NCBI RefSeq assembly: GCF_024223415.1
Contig: NZ_CP100500.1
Reading direction: 5' to 3' (one strand)
Source: Escherichia coli
GTDB taxonomy: Bacteria > Pseudomonadota > Gammaproteobacteria > Enterobacterales > Enterobacteriaceae
DNA length: 64,000 bases
In this document: positions 1 through 54,388 of the stretch, in pieces
Layout of the letters: each line of letters opens with the position of its first letter
Position numbering within the stretch: position 1 is the first letter of the stretch
Translations under genes and position numbers: made by a program
Notes under the pieces: generated by a model
The model's database searches: none
Told to the model about the DNA's origin: nothing
What the model saw: the letters and a program-made list of their open reading frames with translations, nothing else

Positions 1-1064
1 ACGCTGCCAAACGCCCGGTGCTTTATCTGGGCGGCGGTGTGATCAATGCGCCCGCACGGGTGCGTGAACTGGCGGAGAAAGCGCAACTGCCTACCACCAT
101 GACTTTAATGGCGCTGGGCATGTTGCCAAAAGCGCATCCGTTGTCGCTGGGTATGCTGGGGATGCACGGCGTGCGCAGCACCAACTATATTTTGCAGGAG
201 GCGGATTTGTTGATAGTGCTCGGTGCGCGTTTTGATGACCGGGCGATTGGCAAAACCGAGCAGTTCTGTCCGAATGCCAAAATCATTCATGTCGATATCG
301 ACCGTGCAGAGCTGGGTAAAATCAAGCAGCCGCACGTGGCGATTCAGGCGGATGTTGATGACGTGCTGGCGCAGTTGATCCCGCTGGTGGAAGCGCAACC
401 GCGTGCAGAGTGGCACCAGTTGGTAGCGGATTTGCAGCGTGAGTTTCCGTGTCCAATCCCGAAAGCGTGCGATCCGTTAAGCCATTACGGCCTGATCAAC
501 GCCGTTGCCGCCTGTGTCGATGACAATGCAATTATCACCACCGACGTTGGTCAGCATCAGATGTGGACCGCGCAAGCTTATCCGCTCAATCGCCCACGCC
601 AGTGGCTGACCTCCGGTGGGCTGGGCACGATGGGTTTTGGCCTGCCTGCGGCGATTGGCGCTGCGCTGGCGAACCCGGATCGCAAAGTGTTGTGTTTCTC
701 CGGCGACGGCAGCCTGATGATGAATATTCAGGAGATGGCGACCGCCAGTGAAAATCAGCTGGATGTCAAAATCATTCTGATGAACAACGAAGCGCTGGGG
801 CTGGTGCATCAGCAACAGAGTCTGTTCTACGAGCAAGGCGTTTTTGCCGCCACCTATCCGGGCAAAATCAACTTTATGCAGATTGCCGCCGGATTCGGCC
901 TCGAAACCTGTGATTTGAATAACGAAGCCGATCCGCAGGCTTCATTGCAGGAAATCATCAATCGCCCTGGCCCGGCGCTGATCCATGTGCGCATTGATGC
1001 CGAAGAAAAAGTTTACCCGATGGTGCCGCCAGGTGCGGCGAATACTGAAATGGTGGGGGAATAA
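1..1064 (+). CDS. ilvB: Acetolactate synthase I large subunit, C-terminal part (5' end lies upstream of window)
   Basis: Open frame from window start to stop at 1064; thiamine-diphosphate enzyme motif region (GDGS...NNE); followed 4 nt later by ilvN; synteny with uhpABCT. Confidence 0.9.
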   Translation, partial: AAKRPVLYLGGGVINAPARVRELAEKAQLPTTMTLMALGMLPKAHPLSLGMLGMHGVRSTNYILQEADLLIVLGARFDDRAIGKTEQFCPNAKIIHVDIDRAELGKIKQPHVAIQADVDDVLAQLIPLVEAQPRAEWHQLVADLQREFPCPIPKACDPLSHYGLINAVAACVDDNAIITTDVGQHQMWTAQAYPLNRPRQWLTSGGLGTMGFGLPAAIGAALANPDRKVLCFSGDGSLMMNIQEMATASENQLDVKIILMNNEALGLVHQQQSLFYEQGVFAATYPGKINFMQIAAGFGLETCDLNNEADPQASLQEIINRPGPALIHVRIDAEEKVYPMVPPGAANTEMVGE

Positions 1065-1067
1065 GCC

Positions 1068-1358
1068 ATGCAAAACACAACTCATGACAACGTAATTCTG
1101 GAGCTCACCGTTCGCAACCATCCGGGCGTAATGACCCACGTTTGTGGCCTTTTTGCCCGCCGCGCTTTTAACGTTGAAGGCATTCTTTGTCTGCCGATTC
1201 AGGACAGCGACAAAAGCCATATCTGGCTACTGGTCAATGACGACCAGCGTCTGGAGCAGATGATAAGCCAAATCGATAAGCTGGAAGATGTCGTGAAAGT
1301 GCAGCGTAATCAGTCCGATCCGACGATGTTTAACAAGATCGCGGTGTTTTTTCAGTAA
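1068..1358 (+). CDS. ilvN: Acetolactate synthase I small (regulatory) subunit
   Basis: 96-aa ORF recognised as IlvN; immediately downstream of ilvB. Confidence 0.92.
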
Positions 1359-1380
1359 CCGCTCAAGGCTTGAACAACAT

Positions 1381-1414
1381 CGCGCTTATCGTTAAGGTAA
1401 GCGCGTTTTTTTTT
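1381..1414 (+). terminator. Intrinsic terminator downstream of ilvBN
   Basis: Inverted repeat cgcgctta...taagcgcg followed by a run of nine T. Confidence 0.7.
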
Positions 1415-1432
1415 ACCCGCCAGGACAAGACC

Positions 1433-2023
1433 ATGATCACCGTTGCCCTTATAGACGATCACCTCATCGTCCGCTCCGGCTTTGCGCAGCTGCTGGGGCT
1501 GGAACCTGATTTGCAGGTAGTTGCCGAGTTTGGTTCGGGGCGCGAGGCGCTGGCGGGGCTGCCGGGGCGCGGTGTGCAGGTGTGTATTTGCGATATCTCC
1601 ATGCCCGATATCTCCGGTCTGGAGCTGCTAAGCCAGCTGCCGAAAGGTATGGCGACGATTATGCTCTCCGTTCACGACAGTCCTGCGCTGGTTGAGCAGG
1701 CGCTTAACGCGGGGGCACGCGGCTTTCTTTCCAAACGCTGTAGTCCGGATGAACTCATTGCTGCGGTGCATACGGTTGCCACGGGCGGCTGTTATCTGAC
1801 GCCGGATATTGCCATTAAACTGGCATCCGGTCGTCAGGACCCGCTAACCAAACGTGAACGCCAGGTGGCGGAAAAACTGGCGCAAGGAATGGCGGTGAAA
1901 GAGATTGCCGCCGAACTGGGCTTGTCACCGAAAACGGTACACGTCCATCGCGCCAATCTGATGGAAAAACTGGGCGTCAGTAACGACGTAGAGCTGGCGC
2001 GCCGCATGTTTGATGGCTGGTGA
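1433..2023 (+). CDS. uhpA: Response regulator UhpA (NarL/FixJ family)
   Basis: Start [10 protein letters not shown] inside ORF 1370..2023; receiver domain plus C-terminal LuxR-type HTH; synteny. Confidence 0.92.
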
Positions 2024-3525
2024 TGAAGACGTTGTTCTCCCGCTTAATTACCGTTATTGCCTGCTTTTTTATCTTCTCTGCCGCATGGTTTTGCCTGTGG
2101 AGTATCAGCCTGCATCTGGTTGAGCGCCCTGATATGGCGGTGCTGTTATTTCCGTTTGGTCTGCGTCTGGGGCTAATGCTGCAATGCCCGCGCGGATACT
2201 GGCCGGTGCTGCTGGGCGCGGAGTGGCTGCTGATTTACTGGCTAACGCAGGCGGTCGGTTTAACCCATTTTCCGTTATTGATGATCGGTAGTTTACTGAC
2301 GTTACTGCCCGTAGCGCTGATCTCGCGCTATCGCCATCAGCGTGACTGGCGCACCTTGCTGTTACAGGGGGCGGCGTTAACGGCGGCGGCGTTGTTGCAG
2401 TCGCTGCCCTGGCTTTGGCACGGCAAAGAGTCGTGGAATGCGCTGTTGCTGACTTTAACTGGCGGCCTGACGCTGGCCCCGATATGTCTGGTGTTCTGGC
2501 ACTATCTCGCCAATAACACCTGGCTGCCGCTCGGCCCGTCACTGGTTTCTCAGCCAATCAACTGGCGCGGGCGACATCTGGTCTGGTACTTGCTGCTGTT
2601 TGTTATCAGTCTCTGGCTCCAGTTGGGATTGCCGGACGAACTGTCGCGCTTTACGCCATTCTGTCTGGCGCTGCCGATTATCGCGCTGGCCTGGCACTAT
2701 GGTTGGCAAGGGGCGCTGATTGCGACGTTGATGAACGCCATCGCGCTGATCGCCAGTCAAACCTGGCGCGATCATCCGGTGGATTTATTGCTCTCGCTGC
2801 TGGTGCAAAGTCTGACAGGGTTGTTGCTTGGCGCTGGCATCCAGCGGTTGCGTGAACTTAACCAGTCGCTGCAAAAGGAACTGGCGCGCAATCAGCATCT
2901 GGCTGAACGGTTGCTGGAAACCGAAGAGAGCGTGCGCCGTGATGTGGCGCGTGAGCTGCATGATGATATCGGTCAGACCATCACTGCTATTCGTACTCAG
3001 GCGGGCATTGTTCAGCGGCTGGCGGCAGATAACGCCAGCGTGAAGCAGAGCGGGCAGCTCATCGAACAACTATCGCTGGGCGTTTACGACGCGGTGCGCC
3101 GTTTGTTGGGTCGGTTACGTCCGCGCCAGTTGGATGATCTCACCCTGGAGCAGGCCATCCGCTCACTGATGCGGGAAATGGAGCTGGAAGGGCGCGGTAT
3201 TGTCAGCCATCTCGAATGGCGAATCGATGAATCAGCGTTAAGCGAAAACCAGCGCGTGACGCTGTTTCGTGTCTGCCAGGAAGGGCTGAACAACATTGTG
3301 AAACATGCTGATGCCAGCGCGGTCACCCTGCAAGGCTGGCAGCAGGATGAACGGTTGATGCTGGTTATTGAAGACGATGGCAGCGGTTTGCCGCCGGGTT
3401 CCGGGCAACAAGGTTTTGGCCTCACCGGAATGCGCGAGCGCGTAACGGCGCTGGGTGGCACATTACACATTTCCTGTCTGCACGGCACGCGTGTCAGCGT
3501 TTCTCTACCTCAACGCTATGTCTAA
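2020..3525 (+). CDS. uhpB: Sensor histidine kinase UhpB
   Basis: 501-aa ORF overlapping uhpA stop; N-terminal multi-TM region, C-terminal histidine kinase/ATPase motifs; synteny. Confidence 0.92.
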
Positions 3526-3528
3526 GGT

Positions 3529-4854
3529 TTGATGATGTTGCCGTTTCTGAAAGCGCCTGCCGATGCGCCATTAATGACTGATAAATATGAAATTGATGCC
3601 CGCTATCGCTACTGGCGTCGGCATATTCTGCTGACCATCTGGCTGGGTTACGCGCTGTTTTACTTCACGCGGAAAAGTTTTAACGCCGCCGTACCAGAAA
3701 TCCTTGCTAACGGCGTGCTCAGCCGTAGCGATATCGGCCTGTTAGCGACCCTGTTTTACATTACCTATGGCGTGTCGAAGTTTGTCTCCGGCATTGTCAG
3801 CGATCGCTCAAATGCCCGTTATTTTATGGGGATAGGGCTTATCGCCACGGGCATTATCAACATTCTGTTTGGCTTCTCGACGTCGCTATGGGCGTTTGCC
3901 GTACTCTGGGTGCTGAACGCCTTTTTCCAGGGCTGGGGTTCACCGGTGTGTGCGCGTCTGTTAACCGCCTGGTATTCTCGTACCGAGCGCGGCGGTTGGT
4001 GGGCATTATGGAACACGGCGCATAACGTCGGCGGCGCACTCATTCCCATTGTGATGGCAGCGGCTGCACTACATTACGGCTGGCGTGCCGGGATGATGAT
4101 TGCTGGTTGTATGGCGATCGTCGTGGGAATTTTTCTCTGCTGGCGGCTGCGCGATCGCCCGCAGGCGTTAGGTTTACCGGCGGTCGGTGAATGGCGACAC
4201 GACGCGCTGGAGATAGCTCAACAACAAGAAGGGGCAGGGCTGACGCGTAAAGAGATCCTCACCAAATATGTGTTGCTGAATCCGTATATCTGGCTGCTTT
4301 CGTTTTGCTATGTGCTGGTCTATGTGGTCCGGGCGGCGATCAACGACTGGGGCAATTTGTATATGTCCGAGACGCTGGGCGTCGATCTGGTCACGGCGAA
4401 TACGGCAGTGACGATGTTTGAACTGGGTGGATTTATCGGTGCGCTGGTAGCGGGTTGGGGCTCGGACAAATTGTTTAACGGCAACCGAGGGCCGATGAAT
4501 TTGATTTTCGCCGCCGGAATTTTGCTTTCAGTCGGCTCCCTGTGGCTGATGCCATTTGCCAGCTACGTGATGCAGGCAACCTGCTTCTTCACCATTGGTT
4601 TTTTTGTCTTTGGCCCACAGATGTTAATCGGTATGGCGGCGGCAGAGTGTTCCCACAAAGAGGCGGCAGGGGCGGCGACGGGGTTTGTCGGCTTGTTTGC
4701 TTATCTGGGGGCGTCGCTTGCTGGTTGGCCGCTGGCGAAAGTACTCGATACCTGGCACTGGAGCGGATTTTTTGTGGTTATCTCTATCGCCGCCGGGATT
4801 TCCGCACTGCTGTTACTGCCCTTTTTGAACGCCCAGACACCGCGCGAAGCGTGA
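3529..4854 (+). CDS. uhpC: Glucose-6-phosphate sensor/transporter-like MFS protein UhpC
   Basis: 441-aa MFS protein, paralog of UhpT; synteny. Confidence 0.9.
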   Translation: MMMLPFLKAPADAPLMTDKYEIDARYRYWRRHILLTIWLGYALFYFTRKSFNAAVPEILANGVLSRSDIGLLATLFYITYGVSKFVSGIVSDRSNARYFMGIGLIATGIINILFGFSTSLWAFAVLWVLNAFFQGWGSPVCARLLTAWYSRTERGGWWALWNTAHNVGGALIPIVMAAAALHYGWRAGMMIAGCMAIVVGIFLCWRLRDRPQALGLPAVGEWRHDALEIAQQQEGAGLTRKEILTKYVLLNPYIWLLSFCYVLVYVVRAAINDWGNLYMSETLGVDLVTANTAVTMFELGGFIGALVAGWGSDKLFNGNRGPMNLIFAAGILLSVGSLWLMPFASYVMQATCFFTIGFFVFGPQMLIGMAAAECSHKEAAGAATGFVGLFAYLGASLAGWPLAKVLDTWHWSGFFVVISIAAGISALLLLPFLNAQTPREA

Positions 4855-4879
4855 TGCATCTCACCTTTTCACTTCATAT

Positions 4880-4991
4880 CCGGCAAAACTAAGAAATTTT
4901 CCAGGTTTTGCCTGGACGCTATCTCAGGCCTGATTTGCTGCTGATTTTTACAATGCATGCCTCACGCAGGTATTCATTTCAGGAGTAACCC
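4880..4991 (+). promoter_or_regulatory. uhpT promoter / UhpA-responsive control region (approximate)
   Basis: Intergenic region upstream of uhpT containing the imperfect palindrome gcctggacgctatctcaggcc and the RBS aggagt before the ATG at 4992; exact sites not mapped. Confidence 0.45.
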
Positions 4992-6383
4992 ATGCTGGCT
5001 TTCTTAAACCAGGTTCGCAAGCCGACCCTGGACCTTCCGCTCGAAGTGCGGCGCAAAATGTGGTTCAAACCGTTCATGCAATCCTACCTGGTGGTCTTTA
5101 TCGGCTACCTGACGATGTACCTGATTCGCAAGAACTTTAACATCGCGCAGAACGATATGATTTCGACCTACGGGTTGAGCATGACGCAGCTGGGGATGAT
5201 CGGCCTGGGTTTCTCCATCACTTATGGCGTGGGTAAAACGCTGGTTTCCTACTACGCCGACGGCAAAAACACCAAACAATTCCTGCCGTTCATGCTGATC
5301 CTCTCTGCTATTTGTATGCTGGGCTTCAGTGCCAGTATGGGCAGCGGCTCGGTTAGCCTGTTCCTGATGATTGCCTTCTACGCCTTAAGCGGCTTTTTCC
5401 AGAGTACCGGCGGTTCGTGCAGTTACTCCACCATCACCAAATGGACGCCGCGTCGTAAACGCGGGACATTCCTCGGTTTCTGGAATATTTCTCACAACCT
5501 TGGCGGTGCAGGCGCAGCAGGTGTGGCGCTGTTCGGGGCAAATTACCTGTTCGATGGCCATGTCATCGGCATGTTTATCTTCCCGTCGATTATCGCGCTG
5601 ATTGTCGGTTTTATCGGCCTGCGTTACGGCAGCGACTCCCCGGAATCTTATGGCCTCGGCAAAGCTGAAGAACTGTTCGGCGAGGAGATCAGCGAAGAGG
5701 ACAAAGAGACAGAATCTACCGATATGACCAAGTGGCAGATCTTTGTTGAGTATGTGCTGAAAAACAAAGTGATCTGGCTGCTGTGCTTCGCCAACATTTT
5801 CCTCTATGTGGTACGTATTGGTATCGACCAGTGGTCAACCGTATACGCGTTCCAGGAACTGAAACTCTCTAAAGCGGTGGCGATTCAGGGCTTTACGCTG
5901 TTTGAAGCTGGTGCGCTGGTCGGTACGCTGCTGTGGGGCTGGCTCTCTGACCTGGCGAACGGTCGCCGTGGCCTGGTGGCCTGCATCGCGCTGGCGCTGA
6001 TTATCGCCACGCTCGGTGTGTATCAACATGCCAGTAACGAATATATCTATCTGGCTTCTCTCTTTGCGTTGGGTTTCCTGGTCTTTGGCCCGCAATTGTT
6101 GATTGGTGTGGCTGCTGTTGGCTTTGTACCTAAAAAAGCGATTGGCGCTGCCGATGGTATTAAAGGCACCTTTGCTTACCTGATTGGTGACAGCTTTGCC
6201 AAGTTAGGTCTGGGAATGATTGCCGATGGGACGCCGGTATTCGGCCTTACCGGCTGGGCAGGCACCTTCGCCGCGCTGGATATCGCCGCGATTGGTTGTA
6301 TCTGCCTGATGGCGATAGTGGCGGTAATGGAAGAACGCAAAATCCGCCGCGAGAAAAAAATTCAGCAGTTGACAGTGGCATAA
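4992..6383 (+). CDS. uhpT: Hexose-6-phosphate:phosphate antiporter
   Basis: 463-aa MFS ORF recognised as UhpT; synteny. Confidence 0.94.
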
Positions 6384-6401
6384 ACGTAACTGGTGACTTT
6401 T

Positions 6402-6427
6402 GCCCGGCATGACGCCGGGCTTTTTTT
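6402..6427. terminator. Bidirectional intrinsic terminator between convergent uhpT and ade
   Basis: gcccggc-atgac-gccgggc hairpin followed by a T-run. Confidence 0.7.
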
Positions 6428-6428
6428 A

Positions 6429-8195
6429 TTATTCCGTGACTTCCAGCGTAGTGAAGGCAAACTTCTCGCCATCAAATAGCCCCTGACTGGTTAGTTTTAG
6501 CGCGGGGATCACTGGCAGAGAAAGAAACGCCATCTGAATAAACGGCTCATCGGGTAACGGACCGCATTCACGGGCGGCGGCTTTCAAGGCGTCAATTTGT
6601 TCCGCCAGCGACTGCGCCGTGTCGGTGCTCATCAGCCCGGCAATGGGTAACGGCAGATGACTTTGTACCTGGCCGTTACGTACCACGCACAGCCCGCCGC
6701 CATCCTGAATCACCTGATTGACCGCCAGCGCCATCTCTTCGGCACTGCGACCGATCACCACAATATTATGGCTGTCATGGCTGACCGTCGCAGCCAGCGC
6801 ACCTTCATTCAGTCCAAAGCCGCCAAGCAAACCACAAGCCGGAGCCAGCCGTTGCCCGTAACGCTCAAGTACGGCAATAAAGCTCACATCATCGCGATCA
6901 AAACCATTTTCGCTGTAGACGCTGGAGTGGGAGTGCGTAATCAATTCGTTATGGATGACGTCAATGACCCGATAGCGTTTTCCGGGCGTAAATTGCAGGG
7001 CAAAGTCGCTGGCGGAAACTGGCTGGCGGGCAATGGTGTTGCCATATGGCGGAGCGGATTGTGCCAGTCTCGCCGACTCTTCCGCCTGTAAGGTTTGCGC
7101 ATCAATCGGCTCGCCTTTCACCAGTACCTGCTGCACCGTGACCTTACGCGCATCGCTCAACAGGACGATATCGGCCTGCTTGCCGGGTGCCAGTAAGCCG
7201 AGGTGATTCAGACCAAAGTGGCGCGCCGTCGACCAGCTGGCGACGCGATATGCCACATGCAGCGGCACATTGTGTTGTTCGATCAGGCGGCGAATTAAGG
7301 CATCGATGTGTCCTTCATGGGCGATCTCCCACGGGTTACGGTCATCGGTACAGAGCATGCATTGCGGGCTGTTAAATTCGTTGATCAACGGTGCCAGCGC
7401 GTTGAGATTGCGGGCAGCGGACCCTTCGCGGATCATCAACGACATGCCGAGTTGTAATTTCCGGCGTCCTTCTTCCAGCTGATAACTTTCGTGGCAGTTT
7501 TCAATACCCGCAGTAATATAGGCGTTAAGTTCTTTACCACCCAAACCCGGGCAGTGACCGTCCAGCGTCAGGTGGCGAAATGCATCCAGTTTATCGAGCA
7601 GCGCATTCTGCCCGCTAATTACGCCAGGGTAGTCCATCATTTCTGCAAGGCCGGTAACCTGCGGATGGTCCCGCCAGGCGAGCATCTGTTCAAGGGTAAA
7701 ACTGGCACCGTTAACATCGCAGCCTTCCAGGGCGGGTACGCAAGAGCTGACCTGTAAGTACTGGTTTTGCCTTGCCTGTTCGGCACAGCGGGCAAACCAG
7801 GCGAATCCGGCTTCGCCCATCACGTTGACGATTTCATGAGGGTCGCAAATAACGGTCGTCAGGCCGCGCGGCAGGGTAGCGGTTTCAAAAGTGACCGGCG
7901 TCATCATGCTGGATTCAATATGCAGGTGAGCATCAATAAACCCTGGCACCGCCGTTGCGCCGCGAGCATCAATCCGCTGCAAAGCCGGAGCATCAGTGTA
8001 TTCTGCGCCAACACCGGCAATGTAACGTCCTTTAATCACAATTGGGCCGGAAATTTCTCCGCCATTGATCAGGTCGAGAATAGAGACATTATCAATAATA
8101 TAATCGGCAACAGCGTCGCCACGGGAAACGGCTAACAATTCCTGGTATTCAGCCCGGCTAATGTGATGAAATTTATGGTTAATAGAATTATTCAT
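6429..8195 (-). CDS. ade: Adenine deaminase
   Basis: 588-aa ORF with amidohydrolase metal-binding motifs ([11 protein letters not shown]); K-12 synteny. Confidence 0.92.
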
Positions 8196-8368
8196 ATTTT
8201 TCTCATTTTGATTTTATCAATTTGATTATTATTTATCATAAAGAAACGTCGCGAGATTATTAAAGAATATCCATTAATGTGCAATTGAAATGTGATAATT
8301 ATCACTGAACCGTTGTTGTCATTTGTTTTACAAAAGCAAGGGATTAAATCTCCTCCAATGGACAAAAA

Positions 8369-9703
8369 ATGAATAATGACAATACCGATTACGTGAGTAA
8401 TGAATCAGGGACGCTTTCGCGATTATTTAAACTACCTCAGCATGGGACCACCGTCCGCACAGAATTGATTGCGGGGATGACCACTTTTTTAACCATGGTG
8501 TACATCGTTTTTGTGAACCCGCAAATCCTCGGCGCGGCACAAATGGACCCGAAAGTGGTGTTTGTTACCACCTGTTTGATTGCCGGTATCGGCAGTATTG
8601 CGATGGGGATATTTGCTAACTTACCCGTGGCGCTGGCTCCGGCAATGGGGCTGAACGCCTTCTTTGCCTTCGTGGTCGTGGGGGCGATGGGCATCTCCTG
8701 GCAGACCGGGATGGGCGCAATATTCTGGGGCGCAGTTGGACTATTTTTGCTCACGCTGTTTCGTATCCGGTACTGGATGATCTCCAACATTCCCTTAAGT
8801 TTACGTATTGGTATCACCAGCGGAATTGGATTATTTATCGCCTTAATGGGATTAAAAAATACTGGCGTTATTGTCGCCAATAAAGACACGCTGGTGATGA
8901 TTGGCGATTTAAGTTCTCACGGCGTGTTGTTAGGTATTTTAGGGTTTTTTATTATAACCGTGTTGTCATCACGTCATTTTCATGCCGCGGTGCTGGTTTC
9001 TATTGTGGCGACGTCTTGCTGTGGATTATTTTTCGGTGATGTTCATTTTAGCGGCGTCTATTCCATTCCGCCTGATATTAGCGGCGTCATTGGTGAAGTA
9101 GATTTGAGCGGCGCGTTAACACTTGAACTCGCCGGTATCATTTTCTCCTTTATGCTGATCAACCTATTTGATTCATCAGGAACATTAATTGGTGTAACTG
9201 ATAAAGCGGGCTTAATAGATGGTAACGGTAAATTCCCCAATATGAATAAGGCGCTGTATGTTGATAGCGTCAGTTCGGTGGCGGGTGCGTTTATCGGCAC
9301 CTCGTCTGTTACTGCCTATATTGAAAGTACTTCTGGTGTGGCAGTCGGTGGCCGCACGGGGCTGACTGCGGTTGTGGTTGGCGTTATGTTCCTGTTGGTT
9401 ATGTTCTTCTCACCGCTGGTGGCGATGGTTCCTCCTTACGCAACCGCCGGAGCGTTAATCTTTGTTGGCGTGCTGATGACTTCGAGCCTGGCGCGCGTTA
9501 ACTGGGATGATTTTACCGAATCGGTGCCTGCGTTTATTACCACGGTGATGATGCCCTTTACTTTCTCGATCACCGAAGGGATTGCACTCGGCTTTATGTC
9601 GTACTGCATCATGAAAGTGTGCACCGGGCGCTGGCGCGATCTGAACCTGTGTGTGGTGGTGGTCGCAGCTCTGTTTGCACTGAAGATTATTCTGGTGGAT
9701 TAG
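8369..9703 (+). CDS. adeQ: Adenine permease (NCS2 family)
   Basis: 444-aa multi-TM ORF divergent from ade; nucleobase transporter features; synteny. Confidence 0.87.
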   Translation: MNNDNTDYVSNESGTLSRLFKLPQHGTTVRTELIAGMTTFLTMVYIVFVNPQILGAAQMDPKVVFVTTCLIAGIGSIAMGIFANLPVALAPAMGLNAFFAFVVVGAMGISWQTGMGAIFWGAVGLFLLTLFRIRYWMISNIPLSLRIGITSGIGLFIALMGLKNTGVIVANKDTLVMIGDLSSHGVLLGILGFFIITVLSSRHFHAAVLVSIVATSCCGLFFGDVHFSGVYSIPPDISGVIGEVDLSGALTLELAGIIFSFMLINLFDSSGTLIGVTDKAGLIDGNGKFPNMNKALYVDSVSSVAGAFIGTSSVTAYIESTSGVAVGGRTGLTAVVVGVMFLLVMFFSPLVAMVPPYATAGALIFVGVLMTSSLARVNWDDFTESVPAFITTVMMPFTFSITEGIALGFMSYCIMKVCTGRWRDLNLCVVVVAALFALKIILVD

Positions 9704-9755
9704 TAACTGGCGAGGGTTTCCAGATATCATGAGTTCTGATTACGCAGGAGAACTC

Positions 9756-10208
9756 ATGATCTGGATAATGCTCGCCACGCTGGCAGTGGTGTTTGTGGTT
9801 GGTTTTCGGGTGCTGACATCCGGGGCCAGAAAAGCGATTCGCCGTCTCAGCGATCGGCTGAATATCGATGTCATACCCGTGGAGTCGATGGTCGATCAAA
9901 TGGGAAAGTCAGCCGGTGACGAATTTTTACGTTATTTGCATCGTCCGGATGAGTCGCACCTGCAAAACGCCGCGCAGGTGTTGCTCATCTGGCAAATTGT
10001 CATTGTCGATGGTAGCGAACAGAACCTGCTGCAATGGCATCGGATTTTACAAAAAGCCCGTCTTGCCGCGCCGATTACCGATGCTCAGGTCAGGCTGGCG
10101 CTGGGGTTTCTGCGCGAAACCGAACCTGAAATGCAGGATATTAATGCTTTTCAGATGCGCTATAACGCGTTCTTTCAGCCTGCCGAGGGCGTTCACTGGC
10201 TGCATTAA
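9756..10208 (+). CDS. yicN: Conserved membrane-associated protein YicN (alternative start at 9729)
   Basis: ORF with N-terminal hydrophobic segment MIWIMLATLAVVFVVGF; K-12 synteny. Confidence 0.7.
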   Translation: MIWIMLATLAVVFVVGFRVLTSGARKAIRRLSDRLNIDVIPVESMVDQMGKSAGDEFLRYLHRPDESHLQNAAQVLLIWQIVIVDGSEQNLLQWHRILQKARLAAPITDAQVRLALGFLRETEPEMQDINAFQMRYNAFFQPAEGVHWLH

Positions 10209-10418
10209 AACCGCTTCGTCTTATCAGCCTACAGACCGCGCCTGACCTGTCGGGTGGATAAGACGTTCACGCCGCATCCGGTAATCTTTGCCCTGTTCCG
10301 TTTCGATCTTAACTCCAGCTCAAGCAACACCGTAAAAGTTGCAAAAACGTTAAATGCGTCACACATTTCAATGTTAAAGTGGTCGGCTTTTCCCCTGAAA
10401 CATGCCACGGGTAACACC

Positions 10419-11609
10419 ATGAGTGAATTTATTGCCGAAAACCGCGGCGCGGATGCCATCACCCGACCGAACTGGTCAGCCGTTTTCTCGGTGGCGTTTT
10501 GTGTCGCCTGTCTGATTATCGTTGAGTTTTTGCCCGTCAGTTTGTTGACGCCAATGGCCCAGGATTTAGGCATTTCGGAAGGGGTTGCCGGGCAATCGGT
10601 GACCGTGACCGCCTTTGTGGCAATGTTTGCCAGTTTGTTTATTACCCAGACAATTCAGGCTACTGACCGCCGCTACGTTGTTATTTTGTTTGCCGTTTTG
10701 CTGACGCTCTCCTGCTTGCTGGTTTCCTTTGCTAACTCATTCAGTTTGCTTTTAATCGGTCGTGCCTGTCTGGGGCTGGCGCTGGGCGGGTTCTGGGCGA
10801 TGTCGGCGTCGCTGACCATGCGTCTGGTGCCGCCGCGTACGGTGCCGAAGGCGCTGTCGGTGATCTTCGGCGCGGTTTCTATTGCGCTGGTGATTGCCGC
10901 GCCGTTGGGCAGTTTTTTAGGCGAGCTTATCGGTTGGCGCAATGTCTTTAATGCGGCGGCGGTGATGGGCGTGCTGTGTATTTTCTGGATTATCAAATCA
11001 TTGCCTTCACTGCCAGGCGAACCCTCGCATCAGAAACAAAATACTTTCCGCTTATTACAACGTCCGGGTGTGATGGCAGGGATGATCGCCATCTTCATGT
11101 CTTTCGCCGGGCAGTTTGCTTTCTTCACGTATATTCGCCCGGTGTATATGAACCTGGCGGGATTCGGCGTGGATGGCTTAACGCTGGTGCTGTTGAGTTT
11201 TGGTATCGCCAGCTTTATTGGTACGTCGCTTTCGTCGTTCATTCTTAAACGTTCGGTAAAACTGGCCTTAGCAGGCGCGCCGTTAATACTGGCTGTGAGT
11301 GCGTTGGTACTGACGTTGTGGGGAAGCGATAAAATCATTGCTACCGGCGTGGCGATTATCTGGGGGCTAACTTTTGCATTGGTTCCCGTCGGCTGGTCAA
11401 CGTGGATCACCCGCTCGCTGGCCGATCAGGCAGAAAAAGCCGGGTCTATTCAGGTGGCGGTTATTCAGCTTGCTAATACCTGTGGCGCGGCAATCGGCGG
11501 TTATGCGCTGGATAATATTGGTCTGACTTCGCCGTTGATGTTGTCCGGCACATTGATGTTGCTGACTGCATTGTTGGTTACTGCAAAGGTGAAAATGAAG
11601 AAATCCTGA
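10419..11609 (+). CDS. nepI: Purine ribonucleoside efflux MFS transporter
   Basis: Start [12 protein letters not shown] inside ORF 10254..11609; 12-TM MFS; synteny. Confidence 0.87.
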
Positions 11610-18615: not shown

Positions 18616-18837
18616 TCAGTTCAGGGTGACACTCATCAGCCGGACATACGGGCCAAAACTGTCCTTACGGCGTTCTGCAAATACAGCCAGCACACCGGGA
18701 ATATCCTGCACTTCACGACCGGTATACGCTTCAGTGCCACCATGCCAGCGGTATTTGCCGGTACAGAACGGAAAAAGACGGGATGCAGGATGCTGACGGT
18801 GAATACGCATGGCTTCACCACGGGTGATGATTTTCAT
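18616..18837 (-). CDS. DUF987 protein (YeeT/YpjJ family)
   Basis: 73-aa protein MKIITRGEAMRIH...; conserved position. Confidence 0.8.
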   Translation of the reverse strand: MKIITRGEAMRIHRQHPASRLFPFCTGKYRWHGGTEAYTGREVQDIPGVLAVFAERRKDSFGPYVRLMSVTLN

Positions 18838-18905
18838 AGTGTGATACCTCTGAAGACAGAAGATAAAAGTGAAAACAGGTGTGATGTGGTTGTGACGGTG
18901 ACGGG

Positions 18906-19382
18906 TTAAAGCAGACCGTGTTCCGCAAAGGAGAAAACCTGGCTGCCACCGATTATCAGATGGTCCGGCACCCGGATATCCACCAGGGCCAGTGCCTGTA
19001 CCAGACGTTCCGTAATAAGGCGGTCTGCCTTGCTGGGTGTGACTTCACCTGACGGGTGATTGTGTGCCAGCACCACGGCAGCGGCATTGTGATACAGGGC
19101 GCGTTTAATCACTTCCCGGGGATGGACTTCCGTGCGGTTGATGGTGCCGGTGAAGAGGGTTTCACCGGCAATCAGCTGATTCTGGTTATTCAGATACAGC
19201 ACCCGGAACTCTTCACGCTCCAGTCCCGCCATGTTCAGAATCAGCCATTCCCGTGCCGCACGGGTGGAGGTGAAGGCCACACCGGGTTCATGAAGATGGC
19301 GGTCCAGGGTTTTCAGAGCCCGCAGAATGAGACTGCGCTCGCCGGGCGTCATTTCTCCGGGCAGAAAGGAAAGCTGCTGCAT
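18906..19382 (-). CDS. RadC-like JAB-domain protein (YeeS/YfjY family)
   Basis: Start MQQLSFLPGE; HNHPSG metalloprotease-like motif. Confidence 0.85.
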   Translation of the reverse strand: MQQLSFLPGEMTPGERSLILRALKTLDRHLHEPGVAFTSTRAAREWLILNMAGLEREEFRVLYLNNQNQLIAGETLFTGTINRTEVHPREVIKRALYHNAAAVVLAHNHPSGEVTPSKADRLITERLVQALALVDIRVPDHLIIGGSQVFSFAEHGLL

Positions 19383-19397
19383 TGTCCCTGCCTCCAT

Positions 19398-19883
19398 TCA
19401 GTCGATGATGCGCATAATGGCGCTGCATTCCGGATGCTGCAGGGCGTAATCCCGCAGCCGGTAATAATGGACCGTCATGGCATAACACTCCGTACGACAG
19501 GCGTGATGACTGTACGTCATCAGACAGGCAGCAATGCCGGCGGCTTCCGGGCTCATTTCAGCGCGGTTACCGTTCATGGCATTGAACAGTACCCATGTTT
19601 CGCCATCATCGTCATCCGGTTCGGGCGCTATAAATGCGCCACCGTTGTTCAGTGTGTACAGATTCCAGATACCACCGCAGTAGTCTTCGCAAAGACGGTC
19701 CATCCAGCCGAAGATACGGGGCTCCAGGGTCACCCACTGTGGAATGAGGCAAAAATGCTGCGGCCAGAAGCTGATGCGCTGTTCATCAGGGACTATGGTG
19801 GCAACCAGCTGAGGCTGGTCATTCCCTGATGCAGCGGTTACGGAAACAGAAGATGTGGTGGAATTATGTGAAATGGTTTTCAT
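19398..19883 (-). CDS. Antirestriction protein (KlcA/ArdB-like, YfjX family)
   Basis: 162-aa protein starting MKTISHNS; family and position typical of CP4-57-like elements. Confidence 0.75.
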   Translation of the reverse strand: MKTISHNSTTSSVSVTAASGNDQPQLVATIVPDEQRISFWPQHFCLIPQWVTLEPRIFGWMDRLCEDYCGGIWNLYTLNNGGAFIAPEPDDDDGETWVLFNAMNGNRAEMSPEAAGIAACLMTYSHHACRTECYAMTVHYYRLRDYALQHPECSAIMRIID

Positions 19884-19958
19884 GAAATGACTCCTTAAAG
19901 GACAAATAAATGCGTGGTTTTCATGAAATGACTCCTTAAAGGACAAATAAATGCGTGG
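19877..19958. repeat. Two tandem copies of a 41-bp unit covering the RBS and start codon of the antirestriction gene
   Basis: catgaaatgactccttaaaggacaaataaatgcgtggtttt occurs twice head-to-tail. Confidence 0.85.
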
Positions 19959-19978
19959 TTTTCAGGGTAATGGCTGAA

Positions 19979-20797
19979 TCAGCGCAGGCTCTCCAGCAGC
20001 GTTTCCGCCATCACCCACAATGCGCGGTTGAGCTTAATGTCAGTGTCAATGCTGTGAATGGCACGGGTATGGATACGTTTTCCTTTAGCGCTGCGACCTG
20101 AAATTCCGCCTTTCAGCATATTCTCCTGAATGGTCTGATAAGCACTCCACAGGTCCTTACCGTAATCCTCCCGGCGTCGTGGCGTCAGAATGTCGGCGGT
20201 GGTGACGGGCTGATGTTCGTCACCATAACGGTAAGTCAGTGCCGCCTGTGCCAGCGCCTGGCGTGCCGGTGGCGGCAGAATCAGCGACTGCATGGCATCA
20301 CGCTTTTCCTCAATCCGGTCAAAAACCCCCACCACCTCGTAAGCCCCTTCAATAACTTTCTCCACCACATTTCCCCGGTGCGGAACACGCACTTCCCCCA
20401 GAGACTGACCACAGACGCATCCGTTCTGACAGACGAACCTGAAGTAACCCGGCAGCATCTGGTAGCTGGAGGTACCGTCATGGGAGTTGAGCAGAATGAT
20501 TTCAGGGACATGTTCTCCGTTTATCTCTCCGGCCCGCCGCAGACGCAGCATATGTTTTGTGTATCCCCGGCGGCCCGGGTCGCGCACACGGGTCTGGCAG
20601 GCGAAGAATGGCTGAAAGCCTTCCCGCTGCAGGCTTTCCAGTACGGTGATGGTGGGAATGTACGCATATCGTTTACTGCGGGAAGTATGCCGGTCTTCAC
20701 CGAAAATACTGGGAACATAGTGCATCAGTTCTTCGTGTGTCAGCGGACGGTCACGGCGTATCTGGTTCGTATAACCAAAACGACTGGCTAGTCGCAT
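19979..20797 (-). CDS. DUF932 protein (YfjQ/YafZ family)
   Basis: 272-aa protein starting MRLASRFGYTNQIRRDRPLTHEELM. Confidence 0.8.
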   Translation of the reverse strand: MRLASRFGYTNQIRRDRPLTHEELMHYVPSIFGEDRHTSRSKRYAYIPTITVLESLQREGFQPFFACQTRVRDPGRRGYTKHMLRLRRAGEINGEHVPEIILLNSHDGTSSYQMLPGYFRFVCQNGCVCGQSLGEVRVPHRGNVVEKVIEGAYEVVGVFDRIEEKRDAMQSLILPPPARQALAQAALTYRYGDEHQPVTTADILTPRRREDYGKDLWSAYQTIQENMLKGGISGRSAKGKRIHTRAIHSIDTDIKLNRALWVMAETLLESLR

Positions 20798-21208
20798 AAT
20801 TTGCTCCTTATCGGTGGTTAAGATTTACTGGTGTAATAAATGAAAAAGCCACGTCTCCCGGAGAAGACGCGGCCTGATGGGTGAAATGAATGACGTTTAT
20901 TGTCTGAGAAGACCGTCACTGGCGAGCCGCGTATTAAGCACCTTTCCGGCATCGGGTTCAGAATTCCGGCAGCGCCAGCGTCGCTGACCTTCCGTGTTGC
21001 GGATAACCCGACGGAAATGCATTCCCGGGTCATCCTGGATAAACACATTGCGGTAAGCTGTTATGACAGCAACCGCCTGCCCGTATGAGAAAGATCCTTC
21101 AGCCAGGACATACTCTGTGTAACCCGGCATATCTGTTTTCTCCTGATAAATAAAAAGCCTCTGCCACGCGTTGTGACAGAGGCTGAAGCATGAAACTGAC
21201 TTCAGGGA

Positions 21209-36553: not shown

Positions 36554-37875
36554 GAGAATGTTCCTCCGGATGTTGTTAAACCAGCCGGTGTGGTCATGAA
36601 AACAACGCACCACCTTCACCGGCATAACAACCGGGGAGAAACGTAAAAAATAATCGGGAATGTGACCGCCAGGAGATAAACGGGGAGGTTACGGTGGCTG
36701 AGCCGTACCGGTATGCCGGGTGGTTGTTACGAAACGATGCTTCCGCACGCGTGCGCGATAAAGAAGGGATGATTTTCGTGAGGAAGAGGGGAAAACTGGC
36801 GTTCTGATAATTGCAGAGTTATTTACGGGGCGGTTACGATGGGGCAGACCGTGTCCGGTGGGCAGGCGACAGGTATCACCGATGGGATAAGACTGTCTGA
36901 TTGGTATTATAAATATATAAGAGAGATCAAACACATGAGATCAAATACATGAGTTCATATATGTGAAATAAACACGGTGAGTGTGATCAGTGGGCATGAT
37001 GAGAACGCAGTAGCAACAGACTGCGCTATCCCTGATAGCTGGCGTATAACCCGCGTATATAAAACGTATCTGCAATGTACGTGAACAGAGTGCATTAAGC
37101 ATCCGTCTGAGCGGTAAACATATCCGACCTGGTGAGTGACAGTCTGAGAGACCGGTTAAGTGGTGGCTCGGGAGTAATGAGTTTGGGGTGGGTACCAGAA
37201 TGCCAGTCTGGCGGTATGCTGACAGTATCACGTTAATTGCAGCATAAAGTGATGAGAGGCTAATGGAAGTTAAAACCAAAGCAGTTCCGTCGTTGTTCAT
37301 CCCGGGAGACGCTGGAAAAAGTGATTTCCCACACGCGTTATAAACTTACCTCTGCGGAACTGGAAGCCTTCAACTCTGTGGTTGATCACTGGCTGGCAGA
37401 ACTGACAATGAACAAGCTTTACGATCGTGTTCCCGCTTCAGTCTGGAAATATGTCATCTGAGCGTTCGGTAATCACAACTGCATCGCGCCAGGTGTTATC
37501 CGCTTTGTGATTCTTATTGGCTCTTCTCAGGTTATTAAAAGCTGAATATGTTCCTGTTGTCGGGAACCAGGATAATACCGGGAACGTTAAGCGGTATAGC
37601 GACAACAAAGAATTCGAAATCAAAAGGGAATGGTGCCGGAGGCGTGGGCGGTAATGGGCTGATTTTCAGGTATTACCGGCTTACAGCGTGTGGTTGATAT
37701 TGAGGGGCTGTGAGTTTCACGTATTTGTCAGAAACCCAGACGAGTTTTCCTGTATGGGACGAAATAAGGCAGCGGCAATACATGGAAAAATTTAATATGG
37801 TATGAAGGAGAACCTGTCGGTTACGCTTAATATAACCGGTACACTGTCAGCTCAGGGGATACATGAACCGTTATC

Positions 37876-47691: not shown

Positions 47692-48930
47692 ATGAAAAAA
47701 CGGCCTACTCGAAGTTACATGCTGCTCAGCGCTCTGCTGTTCTTTTTCTTTGTGACCTGGTCCTCATCAAGTTCACTGCTCTCAATCTGGCTTCACCAGG
47801 AAGTGGGGCTAAAAGCATCGGAAACCGGCATTATTTTTTCAGTATTATCCGTCTCCGCGCTCTTCGCGCAGGTCTGTTATGGCTTTATTCAGGACCGACT
47901 TGGTCTGCGCAAACATTTGTTATGGTTTATCACCGCGTTGTTGATCCTCTCCGGCCCGGCTTATCTGCTTTTTAGTTATTTGCTGAGCGTTAATATTCTG
48001 CTGGGCAGCGTATTCGGGGGCTTATTTATCGGGCTGACGTTTAATGGGGGTATCGGCGTTCTGGAGTCCTATACCGAGCGCGTCGCGCGTCAAAGTACCT
48101 TTGAGTTTGGGCGGGCACGCATGTGGGGGTCTCTGGGCTGGGCAGTTGCCACGTTTTTTGCCGGGTTACTGTTTAATATCAACCCTGACCTTAACTTCCT
48201 GGTGGCTTCATGCTCAGGGTTAATCTTCTTCTGCCTCCTGGCCCGATTAAAGGTGGCCGCGCCGGCAAGCATGGAGAAACTCGAAATTGGCGCTAAAAAA
48301 GTTTCTCTGGAAGACGCCCTGCGTCTGCTTACTCTGCCGCGCTTCTGGGCACTGATATTCTTCGTGGTCGGAACCTGCATTTACGGCGTATACGATCAGC
48401 AATTCCCGGTCTATTTCTCATCACAGTTCCCGACATTACGCGAAGGGAACGAGATGTTTGGCTATTTAAACTCTTTCCAGGTCTTTCTCGAGGCCGCAGG
48501 TATGTTTTGTGCGCCGTGGCTGGTTAATCGCATTGGTGCTAAAAATGGTCTGATATTCGCAGGAATGGTGATGGCGCTGCGCATGATTGCTTCAGGGCTG
48601 GTGGAAGGCCCCCTGCTTATCTCCATTACCAAACTGCTTCACGCGGTCGAACTGCCAATATTGTTAGTCGCCATATTTAAATACAACAGTCTGAATTTCG
48701 ACAAACGTCTCTCCTCCACCATTTATCTGGTGGGATTTGCCTGCACCAGCTCCGTCATTGGTACCGTATTGTCCCCGCTGGCAGGCTTTAGCTATGAGAG
48801 ATTTGGCTTCGCCCAATCCTATCTGATCATGGGCATCATGGTGTTCAGCACCACGTTTATTTCCATTTTCCTTTTGCGCTCAACTAAATCCTCATCTGAG
48901 CCATCTTTTCTGCAGCAAAAAGCTGTGTAA
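47692..48930 (+). CDS. fosT: Oligosaccharide:H+ symporter (LacY/CscB family)
   Basis: 412-aa 12-TM ORF; first gene of the operon. Confidence 0.75.
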   Translation: MKKRPTRSYMLLSALLFFFFVTWSSSSSLLSIWLHQEVGLKASETGIIFSVLSVSALFAQVCYGFIQDRLGLRKHLLWFITALLILSGPAYLLFSYLLSVNILLGSVFGGLFIGLTFNGGIGVLESYTERVARQSTFEFGRARMWGSLGWAVATFFAGLLFNINPDLNFLVASCSGLIFFCLLARLKVAAPASMEKLEIGAKKVSLEDALRLLTLPRFWALIFFVVGTCIYGVYDQQFPVYFSSQFPTLREGNEMFGYLNSFQVFLEAAGMFCAPWLVNRIGAKNGLIFAGMVMALRMIASGLVEGPLLISITKLLHAVELPILLVAIFKYNSLNFDKRLSSTIYLVGFACTSSVIGTVLSPLAGFSYERFGFAQSYLIMGIMVFSTTFISIFLLRSTKSSSEPSFLQQKAV

Positions 48931-48949
48931 TGTACTGAGAATAAAGACG

Positions 48950-50383
48950 ATGACATCCTTATTAGAACAGGCTGAACAGGTGCTTGAAAAAGCACAATCC
49001 GGGATTAATCCGCGCTGGTATCCGCGCTATCACCTCGCCCCTCGCGCAGGCTGGATGAATGATCCTAATGGCCTGGTATGGTTTGACGGCTGGTATCACG
49101 CCTTTTATCAACACCATCCCTACTCCCCGAAATGGGGTCCGATGCACTGGGGGCACGCCCGAAGCAAAGATCTGGTGCATTGGGAACATTTGCCCGTCGC
49201 GCTAGCGCCGGAAGGCCCGGCGGACAAAGACGGCTGTTTCTCAGGTTCCGCCGTGGTGGACGGCGATACGCTGGCGCTCATCTATACCGGACATAAATTT
49301 CACGGCCCGTCGGACACTGACGACAACCTCTACCAGGTGCAGTGTCTGGCGACCAGTCGTGACGGCATCCATTTTGAACGGCACGGCAAGGTGATTGATA
49401 CACCGCCCGGACTGCATCACTTTCGCGATCCGAAGGTGTGGCGCGAAGGTGAGTTCTGGTACATGGTTGTCGGTTCCCGCGTGGAAAATACCGGTCAGGT
49501 GCGCCTGTACCGTTCCACCGATCTCCGCGAATGGCATGACGAAGGTATTTTCGCCGAGGCTGATGAAGGCAAGGGCTTTATGTGGGAATGCCCGGATTTC
49601 TTCCCCCTGGGAGAGAAGCGTGTCCTGATGTTCTCGCCGCAGGGCATGGCGGCGGAAGGGTATCACTATCGCAACCTGTTCCAGAGCGGCTATTTACTTG
49701 GGGACTGGCAGCCAGGTCAACCGTTCACCCACAGCGGACAATTTACTGAGCTGGACCACGGCCACGACTTTTATGCCCCGCAGAGTTTCCTGACCCCGGA
49801 TGGCCGACGCATTGTCATCGGGTGGCTGGATATGTGGGAATCATCGATGCCCGAACAGCAGGATGGCTGGGCCGGAATGCTCTCGCTTCCTCGCGAATTA
49901 AGCCTTGTCGATGGTCGTGTGAGAATGAAACCTGCTGCCGAAGTGACCGCGCTGCGTGGCAGCTATTATCCCACGCCCGTCCGCTGTCTGAACAATCAGA
50001 ACGTCCTTGTCGCGGCAAATGCCGACGCGGTCGAAGTTCAGTTGGCATGGGATTTGAGCGCATCGACGGCTGAACAGTTTGGTATCGCGTTGGGCGACGG
50101 GTTGAGAATTTACGTCGATGATCAGGCTGGGCGTCTGGTGGTGGAGCGCCGCTATCCGGAATATTCGCTGGAAGGCACTCGCAGTATTCCGCTTCCAGCA
50201 GACAGCGTTCTGTCACTGCGAATTTTTATTGACCGCTCATCGGTGGAAGTTTTTGTTAACGATGGTGACGCTTGCTTAAGCAGTCGTATTTATCCGCAGC
50301 CGGGCGAGCGTGATATTTCATTGTTTGCAAATCTGGGGAAGGCCTCATTATACGATGCGGGATACTGGTCTTTAGATAAATAA
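48950..50383 (+). CDS. Cytoplasmic GH32 beta-fructofuranosidase (FosGH1-like)
   Basis: 477-aa ORF with GH32 N-terminal motif WMNDPNG and no signal peptide. Confidence 0.8.
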   Translation: MTSLLEQAEQVLEKAQSGINPRWYPRYHLAPRAGWMNDPNGLVWFDGWYHAFYQHHPYSPKWGPMHWGHARSKDLVHWEHLPVALAPEGPADKDGCFSGSAVVDGDTLALIYTGHKFHGPSDTDDNLYQVQCLATSRDGIHFERHGKVIDTPPGLHHFRDPKVWREGEFWYMVVGSRVENTGQVRLYRSTDLREWHDEGIFAEADEGKGFMWECPDFFPLGEKRVLMFSPQGMAAEGYHYRNLFQSGYLLGDWQPGQPFTHSGQFTELDHGHDFYAPQSFLTPDGRRIVIGWLDMWESSMPEQQDGWAGMLSLPRELSLVDGRVRMKPAAEVTALRGSYYPTPVRCLNNQNVLVAANADAVEVQLAWDLSASTAEQFGIALGDGLRIYVDDQAGRLVVERRYPEYSLEGTRSIPLPADSVLSLRIFIDRSSVEVFVNDGDACLSSRIYPQPGERDISLFANLGKASLYDAGYWSLDK

Positions 50384-50547
50384 TTCTCCGTTCCGACCTG
50401 TTTCTTGCAGGGTGAGTTTTTATTTCTGCCAGTCTCTGGCTGGCATGTTATTGTCTGGAATAATGAGAGAGCAAAATGGATGAAAGCGTAATACCTCAAA
50501 ATTGCATTACCTCGAAAGATAAAAATATATTTGTTCCAGGAAAACAG

Positions 50548-51741
50548 ATGCTGGCATTAATGGTGACATTAGCAGCATTTCCTGCCATTGCTGAAGACGT
50601 TACAGGAAACTATCAAAGCTATTTTCAGGATGAATCAGACACCAACGGTACGAGTGTTTCATTAGCCAATCAAGGCAATGAAAAATCATCCCTTAGCGCT
50701 TCATCTTCTCCGGTTGCTGCAGGTCAAAAACCTGAACTCACGACCTCGTCAAAGCCAGTGACGTTATCGGCACCAATGGAGAATAAGAAAACTGCAGTAG
50801 AAAAACGTCCTAAAGGGGATAACCCTGAAGATGTCAGTCTGTTGCGTTTAAGGCAGGAAGATCCGCCGGTTCACTGGAACAGTATTGGTCGTAACATGGA
50901 AGTGGGTAGCTTGCATGGGAACATTGGATCTCAGATAGAAATTGACGATGTTCGCTGGAGCAATAATAAGAAAAACAGCGGCAAGTTTAAACTCGCCACC
51001 ATTCAGGCTTTTTTAAGGCACGATGAATTGCCTAACTGGTATTTCGGTTTCTGGAATGCCAGAGAAGACAGTTATAAAGGACAGTTCAGTAATCAGGACT
51101 ATAAAGGCACCAATACCATCAATGAATTTTTTGTGGGCCATATTTTCGAAACCTGGCGGGGTAATATCGGTACGGAAGTCATGGTCGGCTCCGAAACGGC
51201 AACTAAACGCTGGAAAAACCGGTTCAAAGTCTGGCAGGACCTGCGACTGTCCAACAAATGGAGCCTGGCCGGATACGCGTATGGCGAGTATCAGCCTCAG
51301 GGGAACGAACCGGGGAATGGCGATCTGGAGCAGTACATTTTCGAAATTGAGCCAGCCATTCAATACCGCGTGAATCCGGATCTCGGACTCTATTTGCGGC
51401 CCTATTATTACCATAACCGCCAGGAGCGTCAGAGCTGGGGCGACATTGTAGAAGAAGAATGGAAAGTCACGGCCGGGCTCTGGCGAAACTGGTATCCATT
51501 ATTAACCTCCCTGTATGTTGGATTTGGCCAGGACAAAATAGATAACGCCAGCAATGCCAGCGAAGTTTTCTATGACGGCCGTTATAAGTTTATCGGTGGA
51601 ACGCTGAGTTATCCGGTATTTGGTGAGGTGCGATTATATGGTGAATTCAAGGCACAATTTACGAAAGAAACCGGACTTTGGACATCAACCGGTCACTCAT
51701 GGAATCCGTTTACCGTGGTTGGCGTGAATTATAACTTCTGA
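50548..51741 (+). CDS. Putative outer-membrane beta-barrel protein (FosX/FosY-like; alternative start 50476)
   Basis: Signal peptide MLALMVTLAAFPAIA; aromatic-rich; C-terminal ...VGVNYNF. Confidence 0.6.
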   Translation: MLALMVTLAAFPAIAEDVTGNYQSYFQDESDTNGTSVSLANQGNEKSSLSASSSPVAAGQKPELTTSSKPVTLSAPMENKKTAVEKRPKGDNPEDVSLLRLRQEDPPVHWNSIGRNMEVGSLHGNIGSQIEIDDVRWSNNKKNSGKFKLATIQAFLRHDELPNWYFGFWNAREDSYKGQFSNQDYKGTNTINEFFVGHIFETWRGNIGTEVMVGSETATKRWKNRFKVWQDLRLSNKWSLAGYAYGEYQPQGNEPGNGDLEQYIFEIEPAIQYRVNPDLGLYLRPYYYHNRQERQSWGDIVEEEWKVTAGLWRNWYPLLTSLYVGFGQDKIDNASNASEVFYDGRYKFIGGTLSYPVFGEVRLYGEFKAQFTKETGLWTSTGHSWNPFTVVGVNYNF

Positions 51742-51755
51742 TATTCAGGTGTAGC

Positions 51756-53249: not shown

Positions 53250-53261
53250 CGGGATATTATT

Positions 53262-54275: not shown

Positions 54276-54388
54276 ACCGTACGCTGGATAATCCATGCCA
54301 CCTGAACACGCTGAAGCGTTAGTAAAAATAGTGACCTTACCGCAGGTCACGTTTAAAAAAACAAGTTAATTATTATTAAGGAAATATC

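Follow-up and report, generated by a model that had tools for sequence, protein, structure and literature searches.

A 41-bp tandem duplication of an antirestriction gene's translation-initiation region in Escherichia coli, probably a nearly neutral product of replication slippage in one genomic-island sub-lineage

The translation-initiation region of an ArdB/KlcA-type antirestriction gene lies in two perfect tandem copies in a 64-kb stretch of E. coli DNA (hereafter the window, meaning the whole stretch analysed). This 41-bp duplication occurs only in a single, near-identical sub-lineage of a genomic island on the selC side. The explanation that best accounts for it, and which we hold to be very probably correct, is a microhomology-mediated tandem duplication (MTD), confined to that island sub-lineage and neutral or nearly so. 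It looks like a rare mutation of a familiar type, limited to its lineage, and not like a recurrent switch.

Structure of the duplicated array

Tandem Repeats Finder placed the array at 19874..19964, with 2.2 copies of the 41-bp unit, 100% matches, no indels and a score of 182; such a perfect head-to-tail repeat of a short segment is characteristic of MTDs. Across the 64 kb, the 41-mer was matched exactly at two minus-strand places, 19883..19923 and 19924..19964, and at none in 100 dinucleotide-preserving shuffles. The parts of the array are as follows.

19924..19964, minus strand: distal (extra) 41-bp unit, TGAAAACCACGCATTTATTTGTCCTTTAAGGAGTCATTTCA; one unit is missing in relatives, and the alignment puts the gap at this end of the array
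19883..19923, minus strand: proximal 41-bp unit, with the working Shine-Dalgarno (SD) sequence and the A of the antirestriction start codon
19874..19882, minus strand: third 9-nt microhomology arm, TGAAAACCA, made up of the TG of the start codon, codons 2-3 and one further base
19915..19923 and 19956..19964, minus strand: the other two TGAAAACCA arms
19932..19937, minus strand: distal SD, AAGGAG, 7 nt 5' of the distal ATG (19922..19924)
19891..19896, minus strand: proximal SD, AAGGAG, 7 nt 5' of the main ATG (19881..19883)

Read on the minus strand, the TGA of the upstream DUF932 gene (19979..19981) is followed by 14 nt, then twice by the run TGAAAACCA, CGCATTTATTTGTCCTTT, AAGGAG, TCATTTC, A, and finally by TGAAAACCA and TTTCAC. 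Each copy reads TTTAAGGAG TCATTTC ATG AAA ACC A, the A of its ATG coming from the end of the unit and the remainder being supplied by the following TGAAAACCA.

The earlier note on this DNA had described a 41-bp unit present twice in tandem, each copy having, on the minus strand, AAGGAG separated by 7 nt from an ATG, with the proximal copy starting the antirestriction ORF and the distal one a short out-of-frame ORF. This description held throughout: the period is 41 at 100% identity with two exact 41-mer matches, the initiation motifs stand as described, RefSeq annotates the same antirestriction start in relatives, and the distal ORF has 9 codons. The span that it gave, 19877..19958, does contain two copies in another, equally valid phase, but the unit as it was spelled (catgaaatg...) begins at 19881, 4 nt away. 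Elsewhere in the window, a second, imperfect tandem repeat occurs at 36923..36957, with a 14-bp unit (GAGATCAAACACAT), 2.5 copies and 90% matches.

The antirestriction gene and its surroundings

The array lies between two genes of a co-directional run, the third member of which is a RadC-family gene.

19979..20797, minus strand: upstream DUF932 gene, whose TGA is 95 nt before the antirestriction ATG (54 nt in single-copy alleles)
19398..19883, minus strand: antirestriction gene, 161 aa, PF03230, ArdB/KlcA-type, with the same coding sequence as in alleles without the duplication
18906..19382, minus strand: downstream RadC-family gene, its start taken from the RefSeq annotation of a relative

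The Antirestrict domain (PF03230) scored 123.5 bits over residues 66-161 against a Pfam gathering cut-off of 25. By family the protein is thus of the ArdB/KlcA antirestriction type, with a putative role in alleviating type I restriction, and it is 100% identical to a protein indexed in 1,332 blocks of the assembly collection. Beyond DUF932, on its upstream side, comes a gene of the IrmA family. In the closest complete-genome relative, RefSeq annotates the run GTPase, Ag43, YeeR-like, IrmA, DUF905, DUF932, antirestriction, RadC, DUF987, CbeA, CbtA, DUF5983, DUF957 and DUF4942, and this CP4-like run adjoins setC/yicL/nlpA/nepI.

Terminator-like GC-rich hairpins with T runs were seen on the minus strand at 20846..20875 and 21156..21184, downstream of DUF905 and IrmA. 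They suggest that DUF932-antirestriction-RadC may be the start of a separate transcription unit; a simple scan gave no convincing promoter for this putative unit.

The Ag43 gene of the window (24377..29573) is a pseudogene. An IS66-family element with tnpA, tnpB and tnpC ORFs (27240..29573) interrupts its 5' part, and a 2-bp deletion near 26184 (CCGCCATT changed to CCG--ATT) splits the remaining agn43 into ORFs of 573 aa and 332 aa. The IS66 insertion and the frameshift in agn43 were each found in 0 complete E. coli genomes. The draft assembly GCA_900482235.1 shares the frameshift, and its contig, which spans the agn43-IS66 junction, ends about 100 nt inside the IS66 element. Further along the window, a sugar-utilisation cluster (47692..55351) encodes an oligosaccharide/galactoside MFS permease and two GH32 sucrose-6-phosphate hydrolase/beta-fructosidase-like proteins; the cluster may be similar to the fos (fructooligosaccharide) locus known from islands associated with selC, e.g. 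AGI-3 of APEC BEN2908.

Distribution of the duplication among genomes

Alleles were told apart with a 40-nt probe spanning the duplication junction, which has at most 25 nt in common with the single-copy allele. This 40-mer had 0 matches in 5,426 complete E. coli genomes, both with megablast and with blastn at word size 11, the latter being a repeat run made to exclude a seed or masking artefact. The control probe for the single-copy junction matched at 1,713 places in 1,493 of the same 5,426 genomes, all at 100% identity. An exact scan for the duplication junction gave 0 hits in GTDB species representatives, metagenome contigs and viral contigs. At all ten of ten places encoding the identical antirestriction protein, the DUF932-antirestriction spacer was 54 nt long. 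Longer megablast queries (451 nt and 91 nt) were unable to distinguish 1-copy from 2-copy alleles, because BLAST merges two overlapping pieces to 100% coverage.

The window's rarer DUF932 allele led to two carriers among draft assemblies. GCA_900482235.1 (contig UDHK01000015.1), of the same lineage, carries the duplication within a match of 17,336 nt with 2 mismatches and 0 gaps. GCA_044160685.1 (DBAHQO010000064.1) also carries it, with 1 SNP in 7.2 kb of island; its flank from yicL onward is about 5% divergent. At the position of nepI this draft (locus L033, positions 1..11101) instead carries type III secretion genes, for a TPR chaperone and an IpaB-family translocator. This suggests that the island end was recently transferred between divergent Escherichia backgrounds. 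The junction occurred once per carrier draft, meaning two copies in each, and we saw no 3-copy allele, only the 1- and 2-copy states. The duplication is therefore heritable, and together with the island it has reached a second chromosomal background.

The earlier note had proposed comparing the copy number of the 41-mer across related islands. This comparison gave one copy or two, and two only in one near-identical sub-lineage. Fixation of the duplication in all related islands with no effect on expression, which that note had named as refuting its reading, was not what we found, since the single-copy junction stands at 1,713 places. The junction can serve as a lineage marker for this variant of the selC-side island, and the sequence that we propose for recognising carriers is TTAAGGAGTCATTTCATGAAAACCACGCATTTATTTGTCC.

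The spacer itself differs in length among islands. In diverged paralogous CP4-like islands (L002-L005) the DUF932-antirestriction spacers measured 76, 81, 90 and 91 nt, as against 54 nt in the single-copy allele. The motif TAAGGAG/A followed by 7 nt and ATG was kept in these paralogous islands, and the sequence upstream of it was unrelated. Spacers of 54-91 nt among islands mean that spacer length is free to vary over evolutionary time, and the 95-nt spacer of the window (19884..19978) is within the natural range. We also considered whether the longer spacers (76-91 nt) were older duplications of the 41-bp unit and rejected this, the alignment showing that their extra sequence is unrelated.

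Origin of the duplication

The closest complete-genome relative, E100341, has 99.5% identity over 17 kb and carries the island at the same setC/yicL/nepI site. Against it, the window showed a single clean 41-bp gap in an alignment of 160 nt that was otherwise identical. In all of the 11 loci with this single-copy allele, E100341 included, the 41-bp interval is flanked on either side by the 9-mer TGAAAACCA: the first lies close to the 5' end of the 54-nt spacer, and the second runs over the start codon (A-TGAAAACCA). Such a 9-mer flanking the single-copy interval is the signature of a tandem duplication made by replication slippage. The array of the window has the form unit-unit-arm and ends in a third TGAAAACCA arm, which is again what an MTD leaves. 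Variability within the species, a further mark of MTDs, was also seen, the duplication being present in two drafts and in 0 of 5,426 complete genomes. All MTD features that could be tested were thus found in the 41-bp duplication.

MTDs form at microhomology pairs and have a high reversion rate (PMC8639346). A survey of E. coli genomes lists about 13,000 variable loci of tandem duplication, the majority having microhomology arms (bioRxiv 10.64898/2026.02.28.708716), and the mechanism is slippage of replication from one short direct repeat to another, independent of RecA (PMC8639346; bioRxiv 10.64898/2026.02.28.708716). From the microhomology signature we infer slippage here too. The ancestral, widespread allele would have had two copies of TGAAAACCA, at a distance of 41 bp, in the 54-nt DUF932-antirestriction spacer; as this was replicated, the nascent strand would have slipped from the second TGAAAACCA back to the first, and the 41-bp interval would then have been copied again, giving unit-unit-arm, or 2.2 copies. 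The site is an ordinary one for such an event. After removal of one copy of the unit, direct repeats of 9 bp or more lying no further than 100 bp apart formed 57 pairs in the window, compared with 11-22 in shuffles, and the TGAAAACCA pair is one among these 57.

The locus is a mosaic, its DUF932 side being like L018-type relatives and its antirestriction side like L007-type relatives. We therefore considered the duplication as a by-product of a recombination junction and rejected it: the breakpoints, at about 20354 and 19751, lie away from the spacer, and the L007-type identity is unbroken across it, so the duplication is not a recombination scar. Within the DUF932 gene, a patch of about 400 nt (20354..20770) has 27 differences and compensating small indels relative to relatives that are identical over 17898-20353, and it matches other relatives, e.g. 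L018. This patch has the look of a tract exchanged between paralogous islands by gene conversion or recombination.

Predicted consequences for translation

The duplication adds a second SD-ATG site and, with it, two features of the leader that are specific to the two-copy allele.

19895..19924, minus strand: 9-codon uORF, ATG AAA ACC ACG CAT TTA TTT GTC CTT TAA (MKTTHLFVL*), new with the duplication
19878..19928, minus strand: predicted duplication-specific RNA hairpin, in which UUUCAUGAAA at 19878..19887 and 19919..19928 forms a 10-bp stem enclosing both AUGs

The uORF is out of frame with the antirestriction gene because 41 mod 3 = 2. It ends in a TAA (19895..19897) that shares bases with the proximal SD (TTTAAGGAG) and stands 11 nt 5' of the main ATG. 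Having its own SD and start, and a stop inside the downstream initiation region, the uORF has the geometry of a leader peptide, and ribosomes translating the leader would traverse the real initiation region, its stop being in or near the main SD. None of the single-copy relatives had it, nor did the paralogous islands, whose spacers are 54-91 nt long.

Between the two alleles, neither the protein nor the sequence from -41 to the stop codon differs; a model of initiation limited to about ±35 nt would on that basis predict no change. The folding predictions, made in a 264-nt context, did differ. The energy needed to open the region from -20 to +15 around the main AUG rose from 7.6 to 10.3 kcal/mol with the duplication, and the predicted probability that the main AUG is unpaired fell from 0.34 to 0.12. 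The sequence UUUCAUGAAA is self-complementary and surrounds each start codon, and the predicted stem is AU-rich. The fold as a whole was not better than those of shuffles (z = -0.96), and the predicted folding effect is modest. The spacer contained no sigma-70-like promoter site and no Rfam match at E up to 1.

The second full initiation site, 41 nt upstream, would be expected to recruit ribosomes and have them translate the 9-codon uORF. Ribosomes terminating in the real SD may occlude the main start and lower expression, and the extra opening cost of about 2.7 kcal/mol would act in the same direction; coupling of termination to reinitiation could offset part of the loss. Our best estimate for net antirestriction expression would be a small to moderate decrease or no net change. 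We consider the duplication neutral or nearly neutral, and not a regulatory device. The two alleles, being isogenic from -41, form a convenient natural pair for studying the effects of a tandem SD-ATG and of a uORF stop within an SD on translation.

Alternative explanations

An adaptive duplication is the alternative that survives best, and we judge it unlikely. It supposes that the duplication was selected because translation of the antirestriction gene, and possibly of a coupled RadC, is retuned by the tandem SD together with the leader uORF, either in a bicistronic-like manner or as a hairpin/uORF brake. The distal site duplicates, base for base, an initiation region that is conserved and presumably efficient, and the stop of the uORF, placed over the main SD and 11 nt before the ATG, permits coupling or occlusion; yet 1,713 otherwise identical loci in the 5,426 genomes do without the duplication, so that there is no sign of recurrent or convergent selection. 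The predicted duplication-specific stem would sequester both AUGs, although the predicted energy change is small. Three assemblies, with two chromosomal backgrounds between them, have retained the allele, and as a perfect 41-bp repeat is expected to be deleted fairly often, this persistence could hint at selection. The carrier islands are nearly identical (0-2 SNPs), however, and persistence may therefore reflect youth; the near-identity over the island (1 SNP in 7.2 kb) is equally compatible with a recent origin. Finally, the same island copy bears private degenerative lesions, the IS66 insertion and the 2-bp agn43 frameshift, which point to relaxed constraint on the island rather than to tuning.

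A bolder form of this idea makes the duplication a selected and reversible rheostat, in which the leader and the AUG-AUG hairpin would probably lower antirestriction output and loss of one copy would restore the level. We regard it as a long shot, less probable than adaptive retuning in general. If true, it would show in nature a reversible MTD that serves an anti-defence gene as a translational rheostat.

The earlier note had also raised the possibility of a slipped-strand variable site. The slippage part of that idea stands, TGAAAACCA being found at both ends of the interval, but the variable part does not, with the duplication in 0 of 5,426 genomes and 1- and 2-copy states only. As a full explanation it would have the copy number of the 41-mer flip often by slipped-strand mispairing and so switch antirestriction expression, as at a phase-variable or contingency site. 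Perfect tandem repeats are able to expand and contract, and the reversion rate of MTDs is high (PMC8639346). Nevertheless, a third copy was never seen, none of the 1,713 places in complete genomes was duplicated, and the identical two-copy state in three assemblies of one island lineage fits inheritance, not recurrent switching. We looked for the multi-state copy-number polymorphism among close relatives that marks contingency loci and did not find it. Nor was there a switch of frame or of promoter spacing: the ORF, the SD and the 41 nt upstream are the same in both alleles, the spacer holds no promoter-like site, and the frame of the gene and its proximal initiation region are independent of copy number. 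A 41-bp unit in two copies is, moreover, unlike known contingency repeats. Frequent switching is thus very improbable as an account of this site.

We give almost no credence to the duplication being an assembly or sequencing artefact of the source genome. This genome is apparently outside the 5,426 RefSeq complete genomes, and no record matched its private junctions, but the same junction is present in two other public assemblies, one of them with different SNPs and a different chromosomal flank. Since these independent drafts, GCA_900482235.1 and GCA_044160685.1, both carry it, the assembly error against which the earlier note had cautioned is not the explanation. In addition, the core genes of the window are intact, and its few other indels relative to relatives are not homopolymer errors.

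Just as hard to credit is an N-terminally extended antirestriction protein of 182 aa starting at an in-frame TTG at 19946: the mechanical ORF 19398..19946 is indeed open and in frame across the distal copy, but the TTG has no SD, strong SD-ATG sites lie downstream of it, and the gene calls of the carrier assemblies take the 161-aa start.

Comparison with known systems

CP4-like islands with ArdB/KlcA genes share with the window the order DUF932-antirestriction-RadC-DUF987-CbeA-CbtA and the protein family, as seen in thousands of E. coli islands; the window differs from these modules only by the 41-bp duplication in the 5' leader.

With contingency loci the site has in common repeat-mediated slippage near a translation start. 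The repeats of such loci, however, have units of 1-9 bp in many copies, whereas this array has a 41-bp unit in two copies, and the site differs from them further in lacking copy-number polymorphism in the population and a switch of frame or promoter spacing.

The leader also resembles the engineered bicistronic design (BCD), which was reportedly introduced by Mutalik et al. in 2013, and coupled leader ORFs: in these systems, likewise, a short ORF with a strong SD ends within or next to the downstream SD. In contrast to bicistronic designs, the arrangement in the window is a duplication accident, found in one lineage only and not conserved, and the stop of its uORF is 11 nt upstream of the ATG, with no overlap with it. 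As the uORF is not conserved, the likeness is one of geometry only.

The MTD reading makes the site a tidy natural example of slippage copying a whole translation-initiation region and creating a leader uORF before an anti-defence gene. It matters little beyond its lineage and reveals no new mechanism or system. Its closest counterparts are MTDs, from which it shows no material difference: a single-copy segment between identical short arms, here of 9 bp and 41 bp apart, has been doubled head to tail, and the resulting duplication is rare and variable within the species.
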